Part shown: in pieces, positions 3,616-17,161 of the stretch
Layout of the letters: each line of letters begins with the position of its first letter
Numbering within the stretch: the first letter of the stretch is position 1
Origin: Escherichia phage vB_EcoP-UTI89UKE2
Length of the DNA: 44,293 nucleotides
Strand: one strand, 5' to 3'
Sequence record: MZ234049.1
The notes under the pieces: model-generated
Databases searched by the model: none
What the model was told of the DNA's origin: nothing
What the model saw: the letters and a program-made list of their open reading frames with translations, nothing else
Translations under genes and position numbers: made by a program

Positions 3616-3622
3616 TATTAAT

Positions 3623-3652
3623 AGGCCATTCCTTAGGGAGTGGCCTTTTTCT
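3623..3652 (+). terminator. stem-loop plus T-run immediately after the RNAP gene
   Basis: GGCCATTCC-loop-GGAGTGGCC followed by TTTTTCTTT. Confidence 0.5.
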
Positions 3653-3676
3653 TTACCTACTACCTGTAACATTTCA

Positions 3677-4072: not shown

Positions 4073-6061
4073 ATGGCTATTATTCAGAATGTACCGTGTC
4101 CTGCCTGTCAAAAGAATGGACATGATATTACTGGCAACCATCTTATGATATTTGAGGATGGCGCTGGTTACTGTAACCGTGGTCACTTCCATGATAACGG
4201 CAAGCCTTATTACCATAAGCCAGAGGGTGGCATCGAGATAACCGAATTACCTATTACTGGCAATATCAAATATACACCTTCTCAGTTTAAAGAGATGGAG
4301 AAGGAAGGGAAGATTAGCGACCCTAAGCTACGCGCCATCGCACTTGGTGGTATGCGTATGAAAGACCGTTGGGAGGTCATGAATGAGCAAGAAAGGGCAG
4401 AACAAGAAGCAGAGTGGAAACTTGATGTTGAATGGTTCCTCACGCTTAAGCGTAAGAATCTTGTTTCCCGACACATTCGCGGCGACATTTGCGCATTGTA
4501 CGATGTACGTGTCGGACACGATGAAGATGGTAGAGTCTCACGGCATTACTATCCACGCTTCGAGAAAGGTGAGCTAGTAGGCGCTAAGTGTCGCACATTA
4601 CCTAAAGACTTTAAGTTTGGTCATTTAGGTAAACTCTTTGGTATGCAAGATCTTTTCGGTATGAATACTTTGTCTCACGTGTTAGACAAGGGAAGACGAA
4701 AGGATTGCTTGCTTATTGTGGGCGGCGAACTGGATGCACTAGCAGCACAGCAAATGCTCCTTGATTCTGCCAAGGGTACTAAGTGGGAAGGCCAGCCTTA
4801 CCATGTATGGTCTGTCAATAAAGGTGAGTCTTGCCTTGAAGAGATAGTACAGAACCGTGAACACATCGCCCAATTTAAGAAGATTATATGGGGTTTTGAT
4901 GGAGATGAGGTAGGGCAGAAGCAGAATCAGCAAGCGGCTCGCCTGTTTCCTGGCAAATCCTATATCCTTGAATACCCTTCTGGTTGCAAAGATGCTAACA
5001 AGGCATTGATGGCTGGCAAGGCTAAAGAGTTTGTTGATGCTTGGTTTAATGCCAAGTCATCTGATGAAGTCTTTGGTAGCCAGATTAAATCTATCGCATC
5101 TCAAAGGGATAAGCTCAAGGCTGCACGTCCAGAGCAAGGGCTATCATGGCCTTGGCCTAAGCTGAACAAGGTAACGCTAGGTATTCGTAAGAACCAGCTT
5201 ATCATTGTAGGTGCAGGTTCTGGTGTAGGTAAGACTGAGTTCCTCCGCGAAGTGGTTAAACATCTCATTGAAGAACACGGTGAATCTGTAGGCATCATTT
5301 CTACAGAAGACCCAATGGTCAAGGTGTCCCGTGCTTTTATCGGCAAGTGGATTGATAAGCGTATTGAGTTACCGCCAACCAACGACCCGAAAGAAGACGG
5401 ATACCGTGAGGTGTTCGACTACACCGAGGAAGAAGCTAACGCTGCCATTGATTATGTAGCTGATACAGGAAAGCTATTTGTGGCTGACCTAGAAGGCGAT
5501 TATTCTATGGAGAAGGTAGAGCAAACTTGCCTAGAGTTTGAGGCTATGGGCATTTCTAATATCATCATTGATAACTTAACGGGGATTAAATTAGATGAGC
5601 GTGCTTTTGGTGGGAAGGTTGGTGCACTTGATGAATGCGTCAAACGAATTGGTACTATCAAAGACCGACATGCGGTTACGATTTTCCTTGTCTCTCACCT
5701 TACACGTCCTCCGGCAAACCGTACCCAACACGAAGAAGGTGGCGAAGTTATCCTTTCTGACTTCCGAGGCTCAGGCGCTATCGGATTCTGGGCATCTTAC
5801 GCCTTGGGGATTGAGCGTAATACAAGAGCTGAAACGCTTGATGAAAGGACTACCACGTACATCTCGTGTGTCAAAGACCGCGATCAAGGTATCTACACTG
5901 GAACCAAGGTCATGCTTAAAGGTGACATTCAGACCGGACGTTTGATGGAACCACAAGCCCGTACTAAGTCATTTGATACAGGTGAAGCAAGGCAGCAAGA
6001 GGTGCCTGATTTACCGGACACTATAGAAGAGACAAACTTTGAAGATGAACAGGAGTTTTAA
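4073..6061 (+). CDS. DNA primase/helicase (T7 gp4-like)
   Basis: N-terminal Cys4 zinc ribbon (CPACQKNGHD...YCNRGH), Walker A GAGSGVGKTEF, and a C-terminal acidic tail ending FEDEQEF as in T7 gp4. Confidence 0.93.
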   Translation: MAIIQNVPCPACQKNGHDITGNHLMIFEDGAGYCNRGHFHDNGKPYYHKPEGGIEITELPITGNIKYTPSQFKEMEKEGKISDPKLRAIALGGMRMKDRWEVMNEQERAEQEAEWKLDVEWFLTLKRKNLVSRHIRGDICALYDVRVGHDEDGRVSRHYYPRFEKGELVGAKCRTLPKDFKFGHLGKLFGMQDLFGMNTLSHVLDKGRRKDCLLIVGGELDALAAQQMLLDSAKGTKWEGQPYHVWSVNKGESCLEEIVQNREHIAQFKKIIWGFDGDEVGQKQNQQAARLFPGKSYILEYPSGCKDANKALMAGKAKEFVDAWFNAKSSDEVFGSQIKSIASQRDKLKAARPEQGLSWPWPKLNKVTLGIRKNQLIIVGAGSGVGKTEFLREVVKHLIEEHGESVGIISTEDPMVKVSRAFIGKWIDKRIELPPTNDPKEDGYREVFDYTEEEANAAIDYVADTGKLFVADLEGDYSMEKVEQTCLEFEAMGISNIIIDNLTGIKLDERAFGGKVGALDECVKRIGTIKDRHAVTIFLVSHLTRPPANRTQHEEGGEVILSDFRGSGAIGFWASYALGIERNTRAETLDERTTTYISCVKDRDQGIYTGTKVMLKGDIQTGRLMEPQARTKSFDTGEARQQEVPDLPDTIEETNFEDEQEF

Positions 6062-7569: not shown

Positions 7570-10102
7570 TTGGAAGAAGGAGGCAGAAGGCCGTATCCTC
7601 GTGATGGATGCGGAAGCTAAAGGACTCCTTGACGCTATCCGCTATGGTCATCGTGAAGATGTGCATATCATTTGCTGCATGGACTTGCTTACTACCGAGG
7701 AGTTTCTCTTCTTTGACCCGTATGAGATGCGTGACCCTGAAGCAAGAGAACACCTGAAGGAATGGGAAGGTCATCAAGATGGTGACTTGGTTGATGGTGT
7801 TAACTTCCTGAAGCACTGTGAAGCTATTGTGTCGCAGAACTTCCTAGGGTACGACGGCCTTCTATTTGAGAAAGCATTCCCTGATATCTGGAAAGGCTTT
7901 AACTATACCGAGAGACGCGGCAAGGGCAGACTCCGCGCTGACCTGTGTCCTGTACGCGTCATGGATACGCTGGTCATGAGTCGCCTGTTAAACCCCGATA
8001 GACGCCTCCCTCCGCAAGCATACGCCAAAGGCATGGGTAACGTCGCCCCTCACTCAATTGAGGCGCACGGCATCCGTATAGGCCGTTATAAGCCGGAGAA
8101 CGAGGATTGGTCTAAGCTAACTGACCACATGGTTCACCGTGTACGGGAGGACGTGGCGATAGGCCGTGACTTGTTCCTCTGGCTCTTTAACGGGGAATGG
8201 ATGGAGCACAAACGCCGTGGCGTGAATAAACGCACTGGCCTAGGTATTGAGACAGCCTTCCACATGGAGTCCATTGTGGCGCTGGAGATGAGCCGTCAGG
8301 CCGAGCGTGGATTCCGTCTGGATATAGATAAAGCATTAGCACGATGCGAGGAATTGGACGCTAAGATTGATGAGACAGTCGCAGCGTTCCGTCCGCACAT
8401 GCCTATGCGTATCAAGTCTAAACCTTTTAAACCGGAAGAAAAGAATGAAGTATGCCAACGCGCAAATGAGTATGGAGCTAGCAACAATATACCTACTGTC
8501 CTTGACCCCTCTCACTTTCTTCACGCAGAGAGACGAGGAGATCGCAAGACAGTATGGAGTGTCACTACTAAGTCTGGTGATTGGTCGGCTAGCGTCAAGA
8601 AAGACTTTCCTCACCTTAGAGGAAACCGTAATGACACGCCAAGCATCAAGTGGATTGGCGCTTACTCGCCTGTTACTTTCGAAGAGATTCCCTTGGGTAA
8701 CAGGGATACAGTTAAGCAAGTGCTCTATGATTATGGATGGAAAGGTGTTGAATTTAACGATACCGAGCAAGCGCATCTCGATGAGCATGGCGTATTACCC
8801 AAGCCTTGGAGTGGGAAGATAAATGAAAAGTCCCTTACTTTATGGCAAGAGAGAGCCGCACGTGAAGGTAAAACAGTCCCTGATTGGTGCTTGGGTATCG
8901 CTGCATGGTACATACTCGTATCCCGTCGTGGTCAGATCCTCAACCGTGGTGACGTTGAAGCCTTCGACCAGAAGGGGGTATGGCCTTCGCAAGCTGGTAT
9001 ACGAAAGTGTCGCGGCCTTGTACCTGTAGCATTTAACAAGGAGTTAGGAATCAATGCGCAGCAATACTACGAAAGGTACGGATGCTGGCCTACGTCAGAC
9101 AAGGATGACGGAGAATGGCGTGTGCCAGCTATTGCTATTAGTATTGGAACTTCTACGTTCCGTATGCGTCATCGTAACGTGGTTAATATTCCTGCCCGTG
9201 GTTTGTATCCTTTACGTGATTTATTCATAGCCGGTAAAGGTAAGCTAATCCTTGGTTGTGATGGTGCTGGTCTTGAACTACGTGTACTGTCTCACTTCAT
9301 GAATGACCCTGAATATCAAGATATTGTACTGCATGGTGACATTCACACCCATAATCAAATGAAGGCTGGTCTTCCTAAGCGTGACATGGCGAAGACATTT
9401 ATATATGCCTTCCTATATGGATCTGGTATAGCTAACCTTGCAGCAGTATGTGGTGTTACTGAGGAAGAAATGGAGGAAGTTGTGGCAAGATTTGAGGTTG
9501 AACTACCATCTCTTGCACGCCTTCGTGAGAATGTTATCGCACAAGGTAACAAGTTTGGCTACCTACAAGCACCTGATGGTCATTGGGGTCGCATCCGTAT
9601 GTCTGGTGGTGAACTTAAAGAGCACACTATGCTTAACGTACTACTCCAGATGACTGGTTCTCTGTGTATGAAATACGCATTGGTCAGAGCGTTTGCAGTG
9701 ATGCGCAAGGAAGGTGTGGCCTTAGATAGCATGGGAAACCCTTGCGGTATAGCTAACGTGCACGATGAAATCCAGATGGAAGTCCCTGAAGATGAGGTCT
9801 TGTATCTCAACTATGACTTGCCTTTCACCTTAGAAGGGTTCGAAACAGAGAAGGCTGCTGTGAAAGCAGTGTTCGATGCAGAGGAGAAACGTGTTCATGT
9901 GGATTCTGAAGGACGTATGTGGTCTGCTGCAAATCTCGTTAGCGTTGATGCTGATGCTGGTGTACTTCATTGCCAGCGTCGTTATCACCGTGCAGGGCAT
10001 ATCATTGCCGATGCAATGACTTGGGCTGGTCATTATTTGAAGATGCGTTGTCCGATGGCAGGTGAGTATAAGATTGGTGCAAGCTGGAAGGAAACACACT
10101 GA
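7556..10102 (+). CDS. DNA polymerase (family A, T7 gp5-like, with 3'-5' exonuclease domain)
   Basis: Motifs VMDAEAKGL (exo), GCDGAGLELRVLSHF (motif A), KTFIYAFLYGSG (motif B) and NVHDEIQMEV (motif C). RBS GGAGG at 7546-7550. The track start at 7529 is a non-ATG extension. Confidence 0.93.
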   Translation: MKTVDWKKEAEGRILVMDAEAKGLLDAIRYGHREDVHIICCMDLLTTEEFLFFDPYEMRDPEAREHLKEWEGHQDGDLVDGVNFLKHCEAIVSQNFLGYDGLLFEKAFPDIWKGFNYTERRGKGRLRADLCPVRVMDTLVMSRLLNPDRRLPPQAYAKGMGNVAPHSIEAHGIRIGRYKPENEDWSKLTDHMVHRVREDVAIGRDLFLWLFNGEWMEHKRRGVNKRTGLGIETAFHMESIVALEMSRQAERGFRLDIDKALARCEELDAKIDETVAAFRPHMPMRIKSKPFKPEEKNEVCQRANEYGASNNIPTVLDPSHFLHAERRGDRKTVWSVTTKSGDWSASVKKDFPHLRGNRNDTPSIKWIGAYSPVTFEEIPLGNRDTVKQVLYDYGWKGVEFNDTEQAHLDEHGVLPKPWSGKINEKSLTLWQERAAREGKTVPDWCLGIAAWYILVSRRGQILNRGDVEAFDQKGVWPSQAGIRKCRGLVPVAFNKELGINAQQYYERYGCWPTSDKDDGEWRVPAIAISIGTSTFRMRHRNVVNIPARGLYPLRDLFIAGKGKLILGCDGAGLELRVLSHFMNDPEYQDIVLHGDIHTHNQMKAGLPKRDMAKTFIYAFLYGSGIANLAAVCGVTEEEMEEVVARFEVELPSLARLRENVIAQGNKFGYLQAPDGHWGRIRMSGGELKEHTMLNVLLQMTGSLCMKYALVRAFAVMRKEGVALDSMGNPCGIANVHDEIQMEVPEDEVLYLNYDLPFTLEGFETEKAAVKAVFDAEEKRVHVDSEGRMWSAANLVSVDADAGVLHCQRRYHRAGHIIADAMTWAGHYLKMRCPMAGEYKIGASWKETH

Positions 10103-10218
10103 TGGACAGGTTTGATGTTGTTTGCCTATTCTCTATCTTCTTTCTTATATTCCTTATGCTTGCTTGCTATGGAAGTATGCGATTAGATATACCTGATGAA
10201 GAGGAGGGTTACGATTGA
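10102..10218 (+). CDS. small hydrophobic peptide (38 aa) ending EEEGYD
   Basis: ATG overlaps the DNAP stop (TGATG); one hydrophobic segment. Confidence 0.3.
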   Translation: MDRFDVVCLFSIFFLIFLMLACYGSMRLDIPDEEEGYD

Positions 10219-10316
10219 TGCAAACTGCTTTTATCATTCTTGGGATCATATTATTTATGGTAGTATTCTGGGCTTTCTCTGGCATTGACCCAGATTGTGA
10301 TGGTAACTACGATTGA
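10218..10316 (+). CDS. small hydrophobic peptide (32 aa) ending DCDGNYD
   Basis: ATG overlaps the preceding stop; same architecture as the previous peptide. Confidence 0.3.
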   Translation: MQTAFIILGIILFMVVFWAFSGIDPDCDGNYD

Positions 10317-10384
10317 GTTATACTCAAGGTCACTTACGAGTGGCCTTTATGAATAACTTATTCCTACTTATTTTGTCTAACATG

Positions 10385-10406
10385 ATTTACTGGACACTAT
10401 AGAAGG
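10385..10406 (+). promoter_or_regulatory. phage RNAP promoter (ATTTACTGGACACTATAGAAGG)
   Basis: Exact match to the consensus recurring in this genome; SP6-type core CACTATAGAAG. Confidence 0.8.
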
Positions 10407-10460
10407 AAAGCCTAGGTAATCTAGGTTTATAAGGTAGTATAGGTAATTAAGTAAATATAG
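10405..10460. repeat. phased (T)AGGT repeat array downstream of a promoter
   Basis: TAGGT/AAGGT/TAGGA motifs at about 9-bp spacing (CCTAGGTAATCTAGGTTTATAAGGTAGTATAGGTAA...). Confidence 0.6.
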
Positions 10461-11319: not shown

Positions 11320-12126
11320 ATGGCACGTGGTGATTTTGATTTTGGTGCTCAGGTTACTAAAGCTGAAGGTAAAGTATTTAAGAACCCTGAAGTTGGTGAT
11401 CATGAAGCAGTAATCTCTGGCATCATTCATGTTGGTTCCTTCCAAGATATCTTTAAGAAAGGTAATACCACTGAAGTTAAGAAGCCAGCAAACTTTGTTC
11501 TTGTTAAGATTGTCCTGATGGGCGACGATGATAAGAACGAAGATGACTCTCGCATGGAACAATGGATGGCTGTGCCTCTGAAGTCTGGTGATAAGGCAAC
11601 ACTAACTAAGTTCCTGAATGCAGTTGACCCTAAAGAGTTGCTGGGTGGCTTCGATGATTTTATCGGTGAATGTCTGACTGCAACTATGGTTGGCTCTGGC
11701 GACAAGAATGATGATGGTACTTTCAAGTATGTTAACTGGAAAGGCTTTGGTGGTATGCCGGATAAGCTGAAGAAACTTGTCATTGCTCAGGTTGAAGAAG
11801 AGGGTCTGTCTATGACAGGTCATATTACCTTCGACAAGCTGACCAAAGAAATCCTTGATGATATTCCTGCTAACTTGGTGCGTCAATACTTCCTGAACGA
11901 GACGCCTCGTGGCAAGAACCTGTCTGTTGCTGGCTCTCACGTAGAAGCAATCATCAAAGCTGCTCGTGAAGAAGACCCAGAGTGGAAGAAAGCTAAGAAG
12001 AAAGATGAAGAGGATGCCACTCCAGCTAATCGTAGATCTCTGGATACCGGCGAGTCTGTTCCACAGGAAGTACCTGAAGCGGAGGACAACCCTGCACCTG
12101 AAATGGATGAAGACGCGGAATACTAA
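11320..12126 (+). CDS. hypothetical protein (268 aa); candidate ssDNA-binding protein
   Basis: Strong ORF with RBS, own promoter and structured leader; acidic C-terminal tail ending EMDEDAEY, reminiscent of T7 gp2.5; N-terminal GDFDFGAQV. Function assignment is inference. Confidence 0.75.
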   Translation: MARGDFDFGAQVTKAEGKVFKNPEVGDHEAVISGIIHVGSFQDIFKKGNTTEVKKPANFVLVKIVLMGDDDKNEDDSRMEQWMAVPLKSGDKATLTKFLNAVDPKELLGGFDDFIGECLTATMVGSGDKNDDGTFKYVNWKGFGGMPDKLKKLVIAQVEEEGLSMTGHITFDKLTKEILDDIPANLVRQYFLNETPRGKNLSVAGSHVEAIIKAAREEDPEWKKAKKKDEEDATPANRRSLDTGESVPQEVPEAEDNPAPEMDEDAEY

Positions 12127-12459: not shown

Positions 12460-12831
12460 ATGTTCAAGATTGAAACTATCGTAAACCGTGTTGTTAAAGG
12501 TGCTGCTCTGGTATCCGTTGAGTCTTTCATTATCGTCGATGAAGCTGATCAACTGGTAGCTGGTACTAAGGCTTACGATACCCGTGAAGAAGCTCAGGCT
12601 AAGATTGACAGCATGGGTAACTTCGCTGCTGGTCTGGAGTTCGCTCGTGCTTGCTTCCCTGAGCAGGCTGACAAAGCCCAGATCGGGAAGGCTAACATCG
12701 TAGCTGAATATCTGGATTGGATTGCTGCTGGTAAACCAGTGAAAGAAGTTAAAGCTGCTGAAGAAGCTGAAGCTCCTGCAGTAGAAGTGTCTGCACCGGA
12801 AGCTCCGGTTAGCGAAGAGGAAGAGTTTTGA
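12460..12831 (+). CDS. hypothetical protein (123 aa) with acidic C-terminal tail ending SEEEEF
   Basis: RBS AGGAG; promoter upstream and strong terminator downstream suggest a highly expressed monocistronic unit. Confidence 0.7.
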   Translation: MFKIETIVNRVVKGAALVSVESFIIVDEADQLVAGTKAYDTREEAQAKIDSMGNFAAGLEFARACFPEQADKAQIGKANIVAEYLDWIAAGKPVKEVKAAEEAEAPAVEVSAPEAPVSEEEEF

Positions 12832-13221: not shown

Positions 13222-14162
13222 TAGATGCTGATATGTTACCCTACATCGTAGGTTATACAATCAGTGACATGACTTATTTACGAGCCACAACTCGTGTTAA
13301 GTCAGGACAAGTCCCATCAATCAAAGATACGCCTGAGTGTAAGCAAGCGTGTGACCGTGTGAACTCCTTGCTTAACTCTTGGGTGTATGCAGCAGAATGT
13401 GATGCAGCTAAGTTATTCATGACGAAATCAGAAGCTAACTTCCGTGTCCGCCTAGCATTCACCAAGCCTTATAAAGGTCAACGTAAGACCGAGAAGCCTC
13501 CATTCTTCTATGAATTGCGAGAGCATCTCTTAGAGGTTCACGGTGCAATCTTGGCAGATGGAGAGGAAGCAGACGACCTCATGAGTATCGCACAATGGGA
13601 CAGCCACCGCCGCTTCCAGCAAGATACAGGTAACGAGTTCCCTATCGGTAGTCCAGAGCATAAAGCATTCTCTGATACTTGCATCGTTTCCTTGGATAAG
13701 GATTTGATGATTGTTCCCGGTTGGCATCTACAGCCGGGTCAAGAGAAGAAGTGGGTAGAGCCTATGGGCTGGCTTGAGTTACGCCGCAAAGCTAATGGTC
13801 AAGTCAAAGACCTAAAAGGTGCTGGCCTTATGTTCCATTATGCACAGATGATTATCGGTGATGATATTGATAACTATGCTGGCATACCTGGTCGTGGTGC
13901 TAAATATGCCTATGATCTTCTCAAAGGTTGTAAGACAGAGAAAGAATTGTACATGGCAGTGCTTGGTGCTTACAAAGCTAAGTTCGGTCATGGACAGGTT
14001 AAGATTAAGAATTACCGAGGTGGTTATCGGGTGGGCAAAGCCTTTGACCTTATGCTTGAATGCGGTCGCTTAGCTCACATGGCTAGGTTCAAAGGTGATA
14101 TATGGAGAGCCGATAAGAACCCAATCTTGTGGGGAGATGATGCGGAATGGTTAGCAAATTAA
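13134..14162 (+). CDS. 5'-3' exonuclease (T7 gp6 / FEN-like)
   Basis: Motifs IALIDADMLPY, GEEADDLMS, SLDKDLMIVPG and GDDIDNYAGIPGRG; RBS AGGAG at 13121-13125. Confidence 0.85.
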   Translation: MRPNFDFGATVSEDNNLILWPTEGNRIALIDADMLPYIVGYTISDMTYLRATTRVKSGQVPSIKDTPECKQACDRVNSLLNSWVYAAECDAAKLFMTKSEANFRVRLAFTKPYKGQRKTEKPPFFYELREHLLEVHGAILADGEEADDLMSIAQWDSHRRFQQDTGNEFPIGSPEHKAFSDTCIVSLDKDLMIVPGWHLQPGQEKKWVEPMGWLELRRKANGQVKDLKGAGLMFHYAQMIIGDDIDNYAGIPGRGAKYAYDLLKGCKTEKELYMAVLGAYKAKFGHGQVKIKNYRGGYRVGKAFDLMLECGRLAHMARFKGDIWRADKNPILWGDDAEWLAN

Positions 14163-16100: not shown

Positions 16101-16217
16101 ATGACTTGTCCTAATTGTGGAAGTAAAGAAACAGAACATGTAGTTATGTCAGATACTTATCATTTCTACTTCTGTCATAGCTGCGACACCACCATTGAAG
16201 AGGAAGAAGCTGTATGA
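16101..16217 (+). CDS. small zinc-ribbon protein (38 aa; CPNCG ... CHSCD)
   Basis: Two CxxC pairs; the ATG of the next gene overlaps its stop. Confidence 0.45.
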   Translation: MTCPNCGSKETEHVVMSDTYHFYFCHSCDTTIEEEEAV

Positions 16218-17161
16218 ATATATTCCAATTCCTAGGTCTTCCAGAAGACCACCGCAATCACCCATTCATGCTGGTGAAACATCGCGGTGAAGTACCTGAG
16301 AAGAAATTAACTTTTCCATGTTATGCACAGGTAAAACGAGATGGTATATTTAGTGCTGTGGTTGTTCGCAACGATGGTGTCGTTGGTATCTTTGGACGCA
16401 CTGGAAAGAAACTGGCTAACACGGAAACCTTGGAAGAATCTTATTCAGCTTTCCCTACTGGCATTTATCTCGGTGAGTTGCAATCTATGGCTATTGATGT
16501 CTACCTTGAAGCACTTTCTGGAGTAGTTAACCCTAACCGCACTGAGCCACTGGATTTCATAGGCCAGCAGATTAAAGACAACCTGTATATTGACTTCTTC
16601 GATATGTTAACTATTAAGGCATTCCATGATGGATTCACTGATGTTTCTTATCTCAAACGTTACGATGCTTTACATCGTCGCATCGGCGCTAATCTTAGCG
16701 GGTACAACGCTATCCTTCCTATTACTCCTTGCCATAATGAGCGAGAAGTTGAAGCGTTTGCGCAAGAGCAAATAGACGCAGGCCGAGAGGGTGCTGTGTT
16801 TAAACTGGACTGTGATTATGAAGCAGGCCACAAAGGTTATCGTCAGACTAAAGAAGTCCGTAAGGTAACTTATGACCTTACTTGTATTGGCTTTGAAGAA
16901 GGCAAAGGTAAGTACAAAGGTAAGGTAGCTAACCTCATTTTCAAATGGAAAGGAGGCAAGACAATCAAAGCTATGTTAGGTAAAGGGTGGACTCATGCAG
17001 ATGCAGAACAGATGTTCCACGATATTAAACATGGTGGACGATTGAATGTCATTGGTAAAATCTTTGAAGTAAAAGGTCTTCAGGATTCAAGCAAGGGCAA
17101 CATTCGTCTGCCCAAAGCGGGAGAATTAAGACATGACAAAGATGAACCAGATTTCTTTTGA
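16214..17161 (+). CDS. ATP-dependent DNA ligase
   Basis: Adenylation motif VKRDG near the N-terminus; size and position typical of T7-group ligases. Confidence 0.85.
   Translation: MNIFQFLGLPEDHRNHPFMLVKHRGEVPEKKLTFPCYAQVKRDGIFSAVVVRNDGVVGIFGRTGKKLANTETLEESYSAFPTGIYLGELQSMAIDVYLEALSGVVNPNRTEPLDFIGQQIKDNLYIDFFDMLTIKAFHDGFTDVSYLKRYDALHRRIGANLSGYNAILPITPCHNEREVEAFAQEQIDAGREGAVFKLDCDYEAGHKGYRQTKEVRKVTYDLTCIGFEEGKGKYKGKVANLIFKWKGGKTIKAMLGKGWTHADAEQMFHDIKHGGRLNVIGKIFEVKGLQDSSKGNIRLPKAGELRHDKDEPDFF

Follow-up and report, generated by a model that had tools for sequence, protein, structure and literature searches.

The closest described relatives of the locus studied here are two small genes of K1E/K1-5 type phages, gene 13.5 and gene 14. 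In K1-5, gene 13.5 encodes a product of 38 aa (gp13.5, AAR90054). Gene 14 of K1E and K1-5 is SP6 gene 15 (SP6_15), and both K1-5 gp14 and the SP6 gene 15 product are 32 aa long and encoded directly before a hairpin. The genome paper of UAB_Phi78 enters the gene as 'Unknown', a literature search gave no functional data on either gene, and the two corresponding protein families, PHROG 15860 and PHROG 4539, are both recorded as being of unknown function.

The DNA analysed, referred to below as the window, is a stretch of 44,293 nucleotides from Escherichia phage vB_EcoP-UTI89UKE2 (MZ234049.1). Downstream from its DNA polymerase gene (DNAP), and on the same + strand, lie two very small open reading frames, ORF1 (10102..10218, 38 aa, MDRFDVVCLFSIFFLIFLMLACYGSMRLDIPDEEEGYD) and ORF2 (10218..10316, 32 aa, MQTAFIILGIILFMVVFWAFSGIDPDCDGNYD). 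The Vectrevirus Escherichia phage vB_EcoP-UTI89UKE3 is 100% identical to the window, and both ORFs are annotated there as hypothetical proteins (UTI89UKE3_012 and UTI89UKE3_013). ORF1 is 95% identical to K1-5 gp13.5, of the same size and position, and ORF2 is 91% identical to K1-5 gp14 and to the SP6 gene 15 product, with its length and its place before the hairpin also shared; no difference was noted in either comparison. Profile matches give the same assignment: phrog_15860 matched ORF1 with an E value of 1.9e-29, residues 1-38 aligning on profile positions 1-38 of 38, and phrog_4539 matched ORF2 with an E value of 2.9e-17. We conclude that both ORFs are already annotated genes of a well-known phage group, and not new ones. 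Profiles from Pfam, NCBIfam and PADLOC (known anti-phage defence components) yielded no significant family for either peptide, with no match at E ≤ 1. Two NhaA antiporters found in the 90% identity cluster of ORF1 are a clustering artefact, as BLASTP gives no alignment with them.

The initial annotation had read the two ORFs as coding for peptides, with frames expected to be intact in relatives, and this expectation held. ORF1 was found in 67 phage records and was full length in 66 of them, the exception being a frameshift in ULINTec6; ORF2 was full length in all 68 records that carry it. Amino-acid identity among these records ranges from 68 to 100%. Pooled dN/dS ratios were 0.17 for ORF1 and 0.19 for ORF2, with a pS of about 0.33. 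When only the 23 haplotypes having both genes were used, the ratios were 0.18 and 0.12 respectively, and the last 150 codons of the polymerase gave 0.18. The constraint is unevenly spread: dN/dS is 0.08 (ORF1) and 0.07 (ORF2) in the C-terminal halves, versus 0.29-0.34 in the N-terminal halves. The alternative frames of the same strand contain, for both ORFs, many stops across relatives. ORF1 and ORF2 are real genes under purifying selection.

Comparison of the relatives revealed four states with exact junctions, namely both genes, ORF1 only, ORF2 only, or neither. ORF2 is present without ORF1 in SP6, UAB_Phi78 and mutPK1A2, and ORF1 without ORF2 in CrRp3, R4596 and NTNC80A. Phages with neither gene include some that are 90-97% identical to the window in the polymerase C-terminal region. 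Where a homing endonuclease gene lies between the polymerase gene and ORF1, the latter is still intact. The two genes are separate accessory cassettes, gained or lost precisely at the stop/start junctions. Since some relatives carry neither, both are dispensable, and because such relatives are many, any benefit that they bring is conditional, and may be small. Their range is narrow: no relatives of the peptides were found outside the lytic Molineuxvirinae, nor among 185,579 bacterial or archaeal species genomes, and a phmmer search with ORF2 against 1.84 billion representatives retrieved its own cluster only. All ORF2-bearing contigs are at most 50 kb long, and in the ten contigs listed ORF2 is always just 3′ of a PF00476 polymerase gene, either directly or after ORF1.

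The overlapping stop and start codons reported initially after the DNAP gene are present at both junctions, and both read TGATG, the final A of the stop doubling as the first base of the ATG (a one-base overlap). At the DNAP/ORF1 junction (10086..10104, + strand), the polymerase stop TGA is at 10100-10102 and the ORF1 ATG at 10102-10104, preceded by a Shine-Dalgarno (SD)-like GGAAGGA at 10086-10092. At the ORF1/ORF2 junction (10201..10220, + strand), the ORF1 stop TGA is at 10216-10218, the ORF2 ATG at 10218-10220, and the SD-like GAGGAGGG at 10201-10208, within the EEEG codons of ORF1. Each SD-like motif is 9 nt 5′ of its ATG. A TTG at 10215 varies among relatives, and the start of ORF2 was therefore placed at the ATG at 10218. 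Relatives keep the overlap itself even with a different stop codon: it reads CTGATG, CTAATG or, with a GTG start, CTAGTG between DNAP and ORF1, and GATTGATG or GACTAATG between ORF1 and ORF2. At the level of the nucleotide sequence, the conserved overlap and the SD-like motifs are compatible with translational coupling. Expression of ORF1 as a frameshift fusion to the polymerase was discarded, as no slippery heptamer is found 5′ of the stop codon.

At the ORF2 stop begins a predicted two-tier RNA hairpin (10314..10360, + strand), with a lower stem UGAGUUAU/AUAACUUA and an upper stem AAGGUCACU/AGUGGCCUU. Its folding energy is -17.3 kcal/mol, with z = -2.3 for the surrounding region, and Rfam gave no match for it or anywhere in the window. 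In relatives, the hairpin abuts whichever stop is last, that of DNAP, ORF1 or ORF2. We take the predicted hairpin as the 3′ boundary of the polymerase transcription unit, where it is a candidate weak terminator or processing site. A scan for SP6-type phage RNA polymerase promoters detected 9 sites in the window, when 0 were expected by chance. One of them, at 10385..10407 (+ strand, an exact match to ATTTACTGGACACTATAGAAGGA), opens the next transcription unit, and the nearest one upstream is at 6009..6031 (+ strand). Judging by its position, the latter likely starts a transcript with the polymerase gene and both micro-ORFs, which sit between these two promoters in a replication-phase unit. Three other ORFs that overlap this region were set aside. 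Many residues of the first (10196-10288, + strand) change at places where ORF2 stays the same, and SP6, which has ORF2 only, lacks the start of this frame. The second (10154-10285, - strand) was rejected from context alone. The third, an annotated ORF of 29 aa (10313-10402), spans the hairpin as well as the promoter; some relatives, L043 and L046 among them, lack part of it or differ there.

The description of each peptide as one hydrophobic helix followed by an acidic tail ending in YD was borne out by the sequences, by hydrophobicity sums and by structure prediction. Summed over 19 residues on the Hessa scale, the two ORFs reach -4.7 and -4.2 kcal/mol respectively, that is, a favourable predicted insertion energy for both, in line with the transmembrane character suggested initially. 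They rank as the two most hydrophobic of the 111 ATG-initiated ORFs of 28-45 aa found in the six frames of the whole window, and are the only ones with a sum below -3 kcal/mol. AlphaFold2, run on single sequences, places a helix at residues 3-28 of ORF1 and 2-20 of ORF2, each followed by a coil tail. Both products are thus predicted to be single-pass membrane microproteins. The positive-inside rule is of no help with their topology: ORF2 is devoid of K, R and H, as are some ORF1 variants. Invariant columns concentrate in the C-terminal half of both peptides, and comprise LMLACYGS (ORF1) and VVFWAFSG (ORF2), at the end of the helix, plus the acidic tail, DEEEGYD in ORF1 and DPD(C/Y)DGNYD in ORF2 (DPDCDGNYD in this phage). 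Because they are invariant, the C-terminal third of the helix and the acidic tail appear to be the working part; in its N-terminal half, the apolar helix would need no more than to stay hydrophobic.

We tentatively propose that the two products act as accessory microproteins of the inner membrane and, through the acidic tail and the invariant segment next to the membrane, bind a partner in the host membrane, a reading whose probability we place a little short of even. ORF1 would be translated by ribosomes that finish the polymerase gene and ORF2 by those that finish ORF1, probably by termination-reinitiation, with the SD-like sequence of each ORF helping reinitiation. Given such reinitiation and the 3′-terminal location of the genes on the DNA-metabolism transcript, the peptides would be made in the replication phase. 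Each would then insert in the host inner membrane, where the acidic tail and the conserved face close to the membrane would bind and modulate a host membrane protein. The outcome could be a host-dependent gain in fitness, for example if the physiology of the envelope or of ions were altered, superinfection excluded, or a membrane-bound defence blocked.

Alternatively, the peptides could perturb the membrane by themselves, either as a cation-leaking oligomer similar to viroporins or type I toxins, or as holin/antiholin partners tuning the timing of lysis. Their size and single apolar helix are indeed like those of viroporins, of type I toxins (TisB, DinQ) and of holins, acidic tails set in a ring would favour cations, and non-significant Pfam matches were obtained to Vpu (E 0.22, with the UAB_Phi78 variant) and to other small membrane subunits. 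Compared with these proteins, ORF1 and ORF2 are nevertheless without a polar helix face, a basic C-terminus, an antisense RNA context or a position in a lysis cassette. Holins are expected in a late lysis cassette beside endolysin and spanin genes, whereas the two ORFs are in the replication-phase unit, and the late lysis genes are far away. The constraint is also strongest on the tail and the membrane-proximal segment, and not on one face of the helix. Partner binding is weakly preferred to a pore because the helices contain no charged or strongly polar residue that could line one, and because the hydrophobic moment of ORF2 is 0.02, a measure that fails to separate known channel helices from these or from non-channel helices. 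All in all, we consider membrane perturbation unlikely.

The tail of ORF2 evokes another activity. The ORF2 helix could be the entering helix of half an EF-hand, with DPDxDGNYD as loop positions 1-9, so that the peptide would bind Ca2+ or Mg2+ at the membrane, probably as an oligomer; extended to ORF1, this reading would have the DEEEGYD cluster act similarly. In the PDB, ORF2 (residues 19-32, AFSGIDPDCDGNYD) matched by sequence only lanmodulin, in all four of its EF-hand loops (AFDKLDPDKDGTLD; PDB 6mi5), where AF-SG-I-DPDCDGNYD of ORF2 parallels AF-DK-L-DPDKDGTLD, with Asp at positions 1, 3, 5 and 9, Gly at 6 and Pro at 2. Residues D24, P25, D26, D28, G29, N30, Y31 and D32 are invariant, and the lone variable tail residue, C/Y27, falls on the non-ligand loop position 4. 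These matches to lanmodulin are, however, not significant (E 0.8 and 1.1), and the Pfam EF-hand models are silent even at E ≤ 10. Measured against PROSITE PS00018, ORF2 has the ligands at loop positions 1, 3 and 5 and the glycine at 6, but position 8 is Tyr and not Ile, Leu or Val, and the peptide ends at position 9, which leaves the loop with no bidentate Glu12 and the motif with neither exiting helix nor paired hand. Isolated EF loops bind Ca2+ weakly, which also counts against a half EF-hand, and the ORF1 tail does not match DxDxDG. This reading we regard as quite improbable.

The initial annotation had also seen in the two ORFs a duplicated pair, and one may imagine paralogous peptides working together as a heteromer. 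In favour of this, the two neighbours are built alike and both close with P-D...G-(x)-Y-D-stop, and the last 9 nt of the two genes are identical in the window (TACGATTGA). The resemblance did not withstand analysis: hhalign of the ORF1 and ORF2 profiles returned a probability of 1.4% and an E value of 0.038 over 8 columns, shuffling the sequences while keeping helix and tail segments apart gave p = 0.14 for their similarity, and ORF1 was not retrieved by the phmmer search with ORF2 against 1.84 billion representatives. Moreover, either gene can be found by itself in several lineages, where it is still under constraint. The duplicated-pair idea was therefore dropped, and we leave only a small chance to a paralogous heteromer.

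The link with the polymerase suggests yet another role. The acidic C-terminal tails of T7 gp2.5 and gp4 bind T7 DNA polymerase, and cytoplasmic tails of the two peptides could likewise dock the phage DNA polymerase, or another replisome protein, on the inner membrane, by imitating the acidic ends of the helicase and the SSB-like proteins of the phage, as in T7-type replisomes. If true, such a tether would be a dedicated and optional membrane-attachment device for replication in a phage of the T7 supergroup. Both genes are linked to the polymerase gene physically and, it seems, translationally, probably on the same mRNA, and in this phage the helicase-primase and other replisome proteins, of 268, 123 and 315 aa, have acidic ends with a terminal aromatic residue (NFEDEQEF, EMDEDAEY, SEEEEF and DEPDFF). 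As in gp2.5 and gp4, the C-termini of ORF1 and ORF2 are short and acidic, have an aromatic residue near the end and belong to a replication module. They differ in that this residue is penultimate (Y-D) rather than terminal, and in that the peptides are predicted to be membrane-anchored. A tether is also difficult to reconcile with relatives whose polymerase C-terminal regions are 90-97% identical and which carry neither gene, and with the intact ORF1 uncoupled from its polymerase gene by the homing endonuclease; its likelihood seems to us slimmer still.

Finally, that the ORFs are non-functional, being either chance frames held open by a nucleic-acid element or spacers carrying ribosomes to the hairpin, is barely credible: both are very short, the last stop codon sits in the base of the conserved hairpin and some relatives do without the genes, but synonymous sites vary freely (pS 0.16-0.34) whereas the protein sequence is preserved (dN/dS 0.07-0.19), stops block the remaining frames, and in relatives without the ORFs the hairpin works equally well straight after the polymerase stop.

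As the outcome of a genome scan, this locus is an ordinary one, consisting of annotated hypothetical genes with no unusual mechanism shown. What is gained is that the duplication has been set aside, that the functional part has been narrowed down to the acidic tail and the segment next to the membrane, and that the EF-loop-like tail of gp14 provides a lead that is cheap to test. Small phage membrane proteins are a poorly studied class, and as ORF1 and ORF2 are conserved, constrained, confined to one lytic lineage and easily deleted, they are tractable candidates for new phage-host membrane interactions.

For the preferred reading, the binding of a host membrane partner, models exist among small proteins. 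The bacterial AcrZ, MgtS, MgrB and KdpF, and the eukaryotic sarcolipin, are regulators that bind membrane proteins and modulate them. Together with phospholamban, also eukaryotic, they would resemble ORF1 and ORF2 by analogy, with a length of 30-50 aa, one transmembrane helix and a short conserved flank contacting a larger protein. There is no sequence relationship between them and the two peptides, which are phage-encoded, have strongly acidic tails, and are missing the usual basic residues.

The DNA polymerase (DNAP) gene ends with a TGA at 10100-10102, whose A also begins the ATG of ORF1, a 38-aa micro-ORF (MDRFDVVCLFSIFFLIFLMLACYGSMRLDIPDEEEGYD, 10102-10218). ORF1 ends in turn with a TGA at 10216-10218, whose A opens the ATG of ORF2 (32 aa, MQTAFIILGIILFMVVFWAFSGIDPDCDGNYD, 10218-10316). 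All are on the plus strand, and an SD-like sequence lies 9 nt 5′ of each ATG, GGAAGGA (10086-10092) for ORF1 and GAGGAGGG (10201-10208) for ORF2. The sequence therefore matches exactly the initial annotation, which had described ORFs of 38 and 32 aa with overlapping stop and start codons after the DNAP gene. A TTG at 10215, offered by ORF listing as the start of ORF2, was rejected in favour of the ATG because it is not conserved among relatives (junction GACTAATG). Across relatives, the polymerase/ORF1 junction reads CTGATG, CTAATG or CTAGTG (the last with a GTG start), and the ORF1/ORF2 junction GATTGATG or GACTAATG. The stop codon varies, yet the one-base overlap is kept, a pattern that selection for termination-reinitiation would give.

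Conservation of intact frames, a check proposed with the initial annotation, was examined by tblastn against 50,697 phage records. ORF1 was found in 67 records, full length in 66 of the 67 (68-100% identity), and ORF2 in 68, all full length (75-100% identity). The sole disrupted copy seen is ORF1 of ULINTec6 (MZ997840.1, about 13943-14062), frameshifted by a 4-nt insertion in the TTCTTTCTT tract, which could reflect sequencing error or genuine loss; both micro-ORFs are unannotated there. Pooled dN/dS (Nei-Gojobori) was 0.17 over 18 unique DNA versions of ORF1 and 0.19 over 13 of ORF2, with pS about 0.33. In the 23 haplotypes with both genes, values were 0.18 for ORF1, 0.12 for ORF2, and 0.18 for the last 150 polymerase codons. 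The two remaining same-strand frames contain many stops. Constraint is uneven: N-terminal halves have a dN/dS of 0.29-0.34, with only hydrophobic-for-hydrophobic changes, and C-terminal halves 0.07-0.08. Invariant residues are A21-C22-Y23-G24-S25 and D32-E33-E34-E35-G36-Y37-D38 in ORF1 (I30 and P31 being present in at least 90% of variants), and V15, V16, W18, F20-S21-G22, D24-P25-D26 and D28-G29-N30-Y31-D32 in ORF2. Among the 111 ATG-ORFs of 28-45 aa in the six frames of the window, ORF1 and ORF2 rank as the top two in hydrophobicity, and only they have a 19-residue Hessa-scale sum below -3 kcal/mol. We conclude that both are genuine genes, encoding small, predicted membrane peptides.

These genes had been annotated before. 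The region is 100% identical to that of Escherichia phage vB_EcoP-UTI89UKE3, a Vectrevirus (Autographiviridae, Molineuxvirinae) of the SP6/K1E/K1-5 group, whose record lists both ORFs as hypothetical proteins. They correspond to genes 13.5 and 14 in K1-5 and K1E, while SP6 has only the 32-aa gene, named 15 or 14 by annotation. Both fall in PHROG families of unknown function (ORF1, phrog_15860, E 1.9e-29; ORF2, phrog_4539, E 2.9e-17). The feature is thus an already known pair of uncharacterised genes (13.5 and 14 in K1-5/K1E, 15 in SP6). Searching representative genomes from 185,579 species of bacteria and archaea yielded no relative of either ORF, and scans of IMG/VR and metagenomes matched only near-identical Molineuxvirinae contigs. 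The assembly collection has the exact ORF2 sequence in 130 blocks, with no carrier contig above 50 kb; in the ten contigs listed, ORF2 closely follows a polymerase gene (PF00476), either immediately or with ORF1 in between. Two NhaA Na+/H+ antiporters (P0007 and P0008, 437 and 465 aa) in the 90% identity cluster of ORF1 gave no BLASTP alignment and were discarded as a clustering artefact.

A consensus scan of the window found 9 phage promoters, against 0 expected by chance. The nearest one 5′ of the micro-ORFs is at 6009 and the next, just 3′ of them, at 10385; the latter is separated from ORF2 by a hairpin of two tiers (10314-10360, -17.3 kcal/mol), and the ORF2 stop is part of its lower stem. 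From these positions, we infer that the micro-ORFs close the replication-phase transcript carrying the polymerase gene, as its last cistrons. With a tail of only UUUAU, the hairpin could act as a weak terminator or be an RNase III-type processing site; it has no Rfam match. It is partly matched even in an Aeromonas phage (H60). A 29-aa TTG-start ORF (10313-10402), annotated in GenBank as UTI89UKE3_014, falls wholly on the hairpin and the 10385 promoter; some of its sequence is missing or altered in relatives (e.g. L043, L046), and the ORF is probably a spurious call. Elsewhere, a GC-rich hairpin with a U-run behind it (3620-3655, AGGCCATTCCTTAGGGAGTGGCCTTTTTCTTT), just 3′ of the gene for the phage RNA polymerase, looks like the host-polymerase early terminator.

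The proposal that the two ORFs are a duplicated pair found no support. Profile-profile comparison of the two families gave a probability of 1.4%, over the last 8 columns only (PDxxxxYD). A Smith-Waterman shuffle test gave p = 0.02 when shuffling was free and p = 0.14 when helix and tail were shuffled separately, and a phmmer search of 1.84 billion cluster representatives with ORF2 as query returned its own cluster only. More telling against an obligate pair is independent inheritance. K1E/K1-5-type phages have both genes; SP6, UAB_Phi78, Kenya-K30, GRNsp51, mutPK1A2 and some metagenomic contigs have ORF2 alone; CrRp3, R4596, Raoultella phage P3a, LF31P3 and NTNC80A have ORF1 alone; relative loci L009, L011, L012-14 and L026 have neither. 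Approximate counts are 55 records with both, a dozen with one or the other, and 26 with neither among 106 relatives detectable by flanking DNA. The conserved hairpin adjoins whichever stop is last, that of ORF2, ORF1 or the polymerase gene, and this stop is followed at once by GTTATACTCAAGG..., the hairpin start, so that cassette boundaries are exact. In NTNC80A (OP018999.1, 13566-14097), the polymerase gene and ORF1 are separated by a homing endonuclease gene, whose 3′ end shares 14 nt with the beginning of ORF1; ORF1 itself is retained, with MSTS as its new N-terminus. Given this independent presence and the exact boundaries, ORF1 and ORF2 are dispensable, separately selected cassettes.

The hydrophobic helix and acidic tail initially ascribed to each peptide were borne out. 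Single-sequence AlphaFold2 predicts a helix (3-28 in ORF1, 2-20 in ORF2) followed by a coil tail, Hessa-scale sums of -4.7 and -4.2 kcal/mol respectively predict membrane insertion, and the acidic residues of the tails are invariant. Basic residues are lacking in all ORF2 variants and in some ORF1 variants. Since neither helix contains charged or strongly polar residues, and selection is concentrated in the tail and the final third of the helix, we favour, with moderate-to-low confidence, a model in which the peptides would be accessory inner-membrane microproteins that are made in the replication phase and act by binding and modulating a membrane protein of the host. A pore-lining helix fits these same two features less well.

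That the peptides tether the polymerase to the membrane is speculative. Their tails are acidic with a penultimate Tyr, and acidic tails ending in F or Y are found in the helicase-primase and three more replication-module proteins (4073-6061, NFEDEQEF; 11320-12126, EMDEDAEY; 12460-12831, SEEEEF; 16214-17161, DEPDFF), resembling the polymerase-binding tails of T7 gp4 and gp2.5; however, both genes are missing in relatives whose polymerase C-terminal regions are 90-97% identical to that of this phage. An EF-hand loop in the ORF2 tail is not established: in the PDB, ORF2 has sequence matches to lanmodulin alone, in its four EF-hand loops, aligning AFSGIDPDCDGNYD with AFDKLDPDKDGTLD places the tail at loop positions 1-9, and its sole variable residue (C/Y) falls at non-ligand position 4, but these matches are not significant (E 0.8-1.1), Pfam EF-hand models do not match, position 12 and the exiting helix are absent, and ORF1 does not fit the motif.

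In an uncultured clade (L030-L035, polymerase C-terminal region 53-55% identical), two tandem hydrophobic ORFs of 28-32 aa with good SD sequences lie +10 to +204 after the polymerase stop. Unrelated in sequence to ORF1 and ORF2 and devoid of acidic tails, they could be positional analogues, or there by coincidence.

An accessory role agrees with the neighbourhood, as the site directly after the hairpin is in relatives a hot spot for optional genes, none of which is in the window. One encodes a nucleotidyltransferase of 177-194 aa, which has a PolyA_pol head domain and weakly matches the anti-Gabija Gad2 family; the others encode an HNH homing endonuclease and a PDDEXK-like protein of 86 aa (insertions at L012 2136-2720, L079 3159-3716, L018 2105-2575 and L007 2376-2636). 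AcrZ, MgtS, MgrB, KdpF and sarcolipin are small proteins that dock onto larger membrane proteins, and an uncharged helix with a constrained last third and tail, as in the two micro-ORFs, is what one would expect of such docking proteins.
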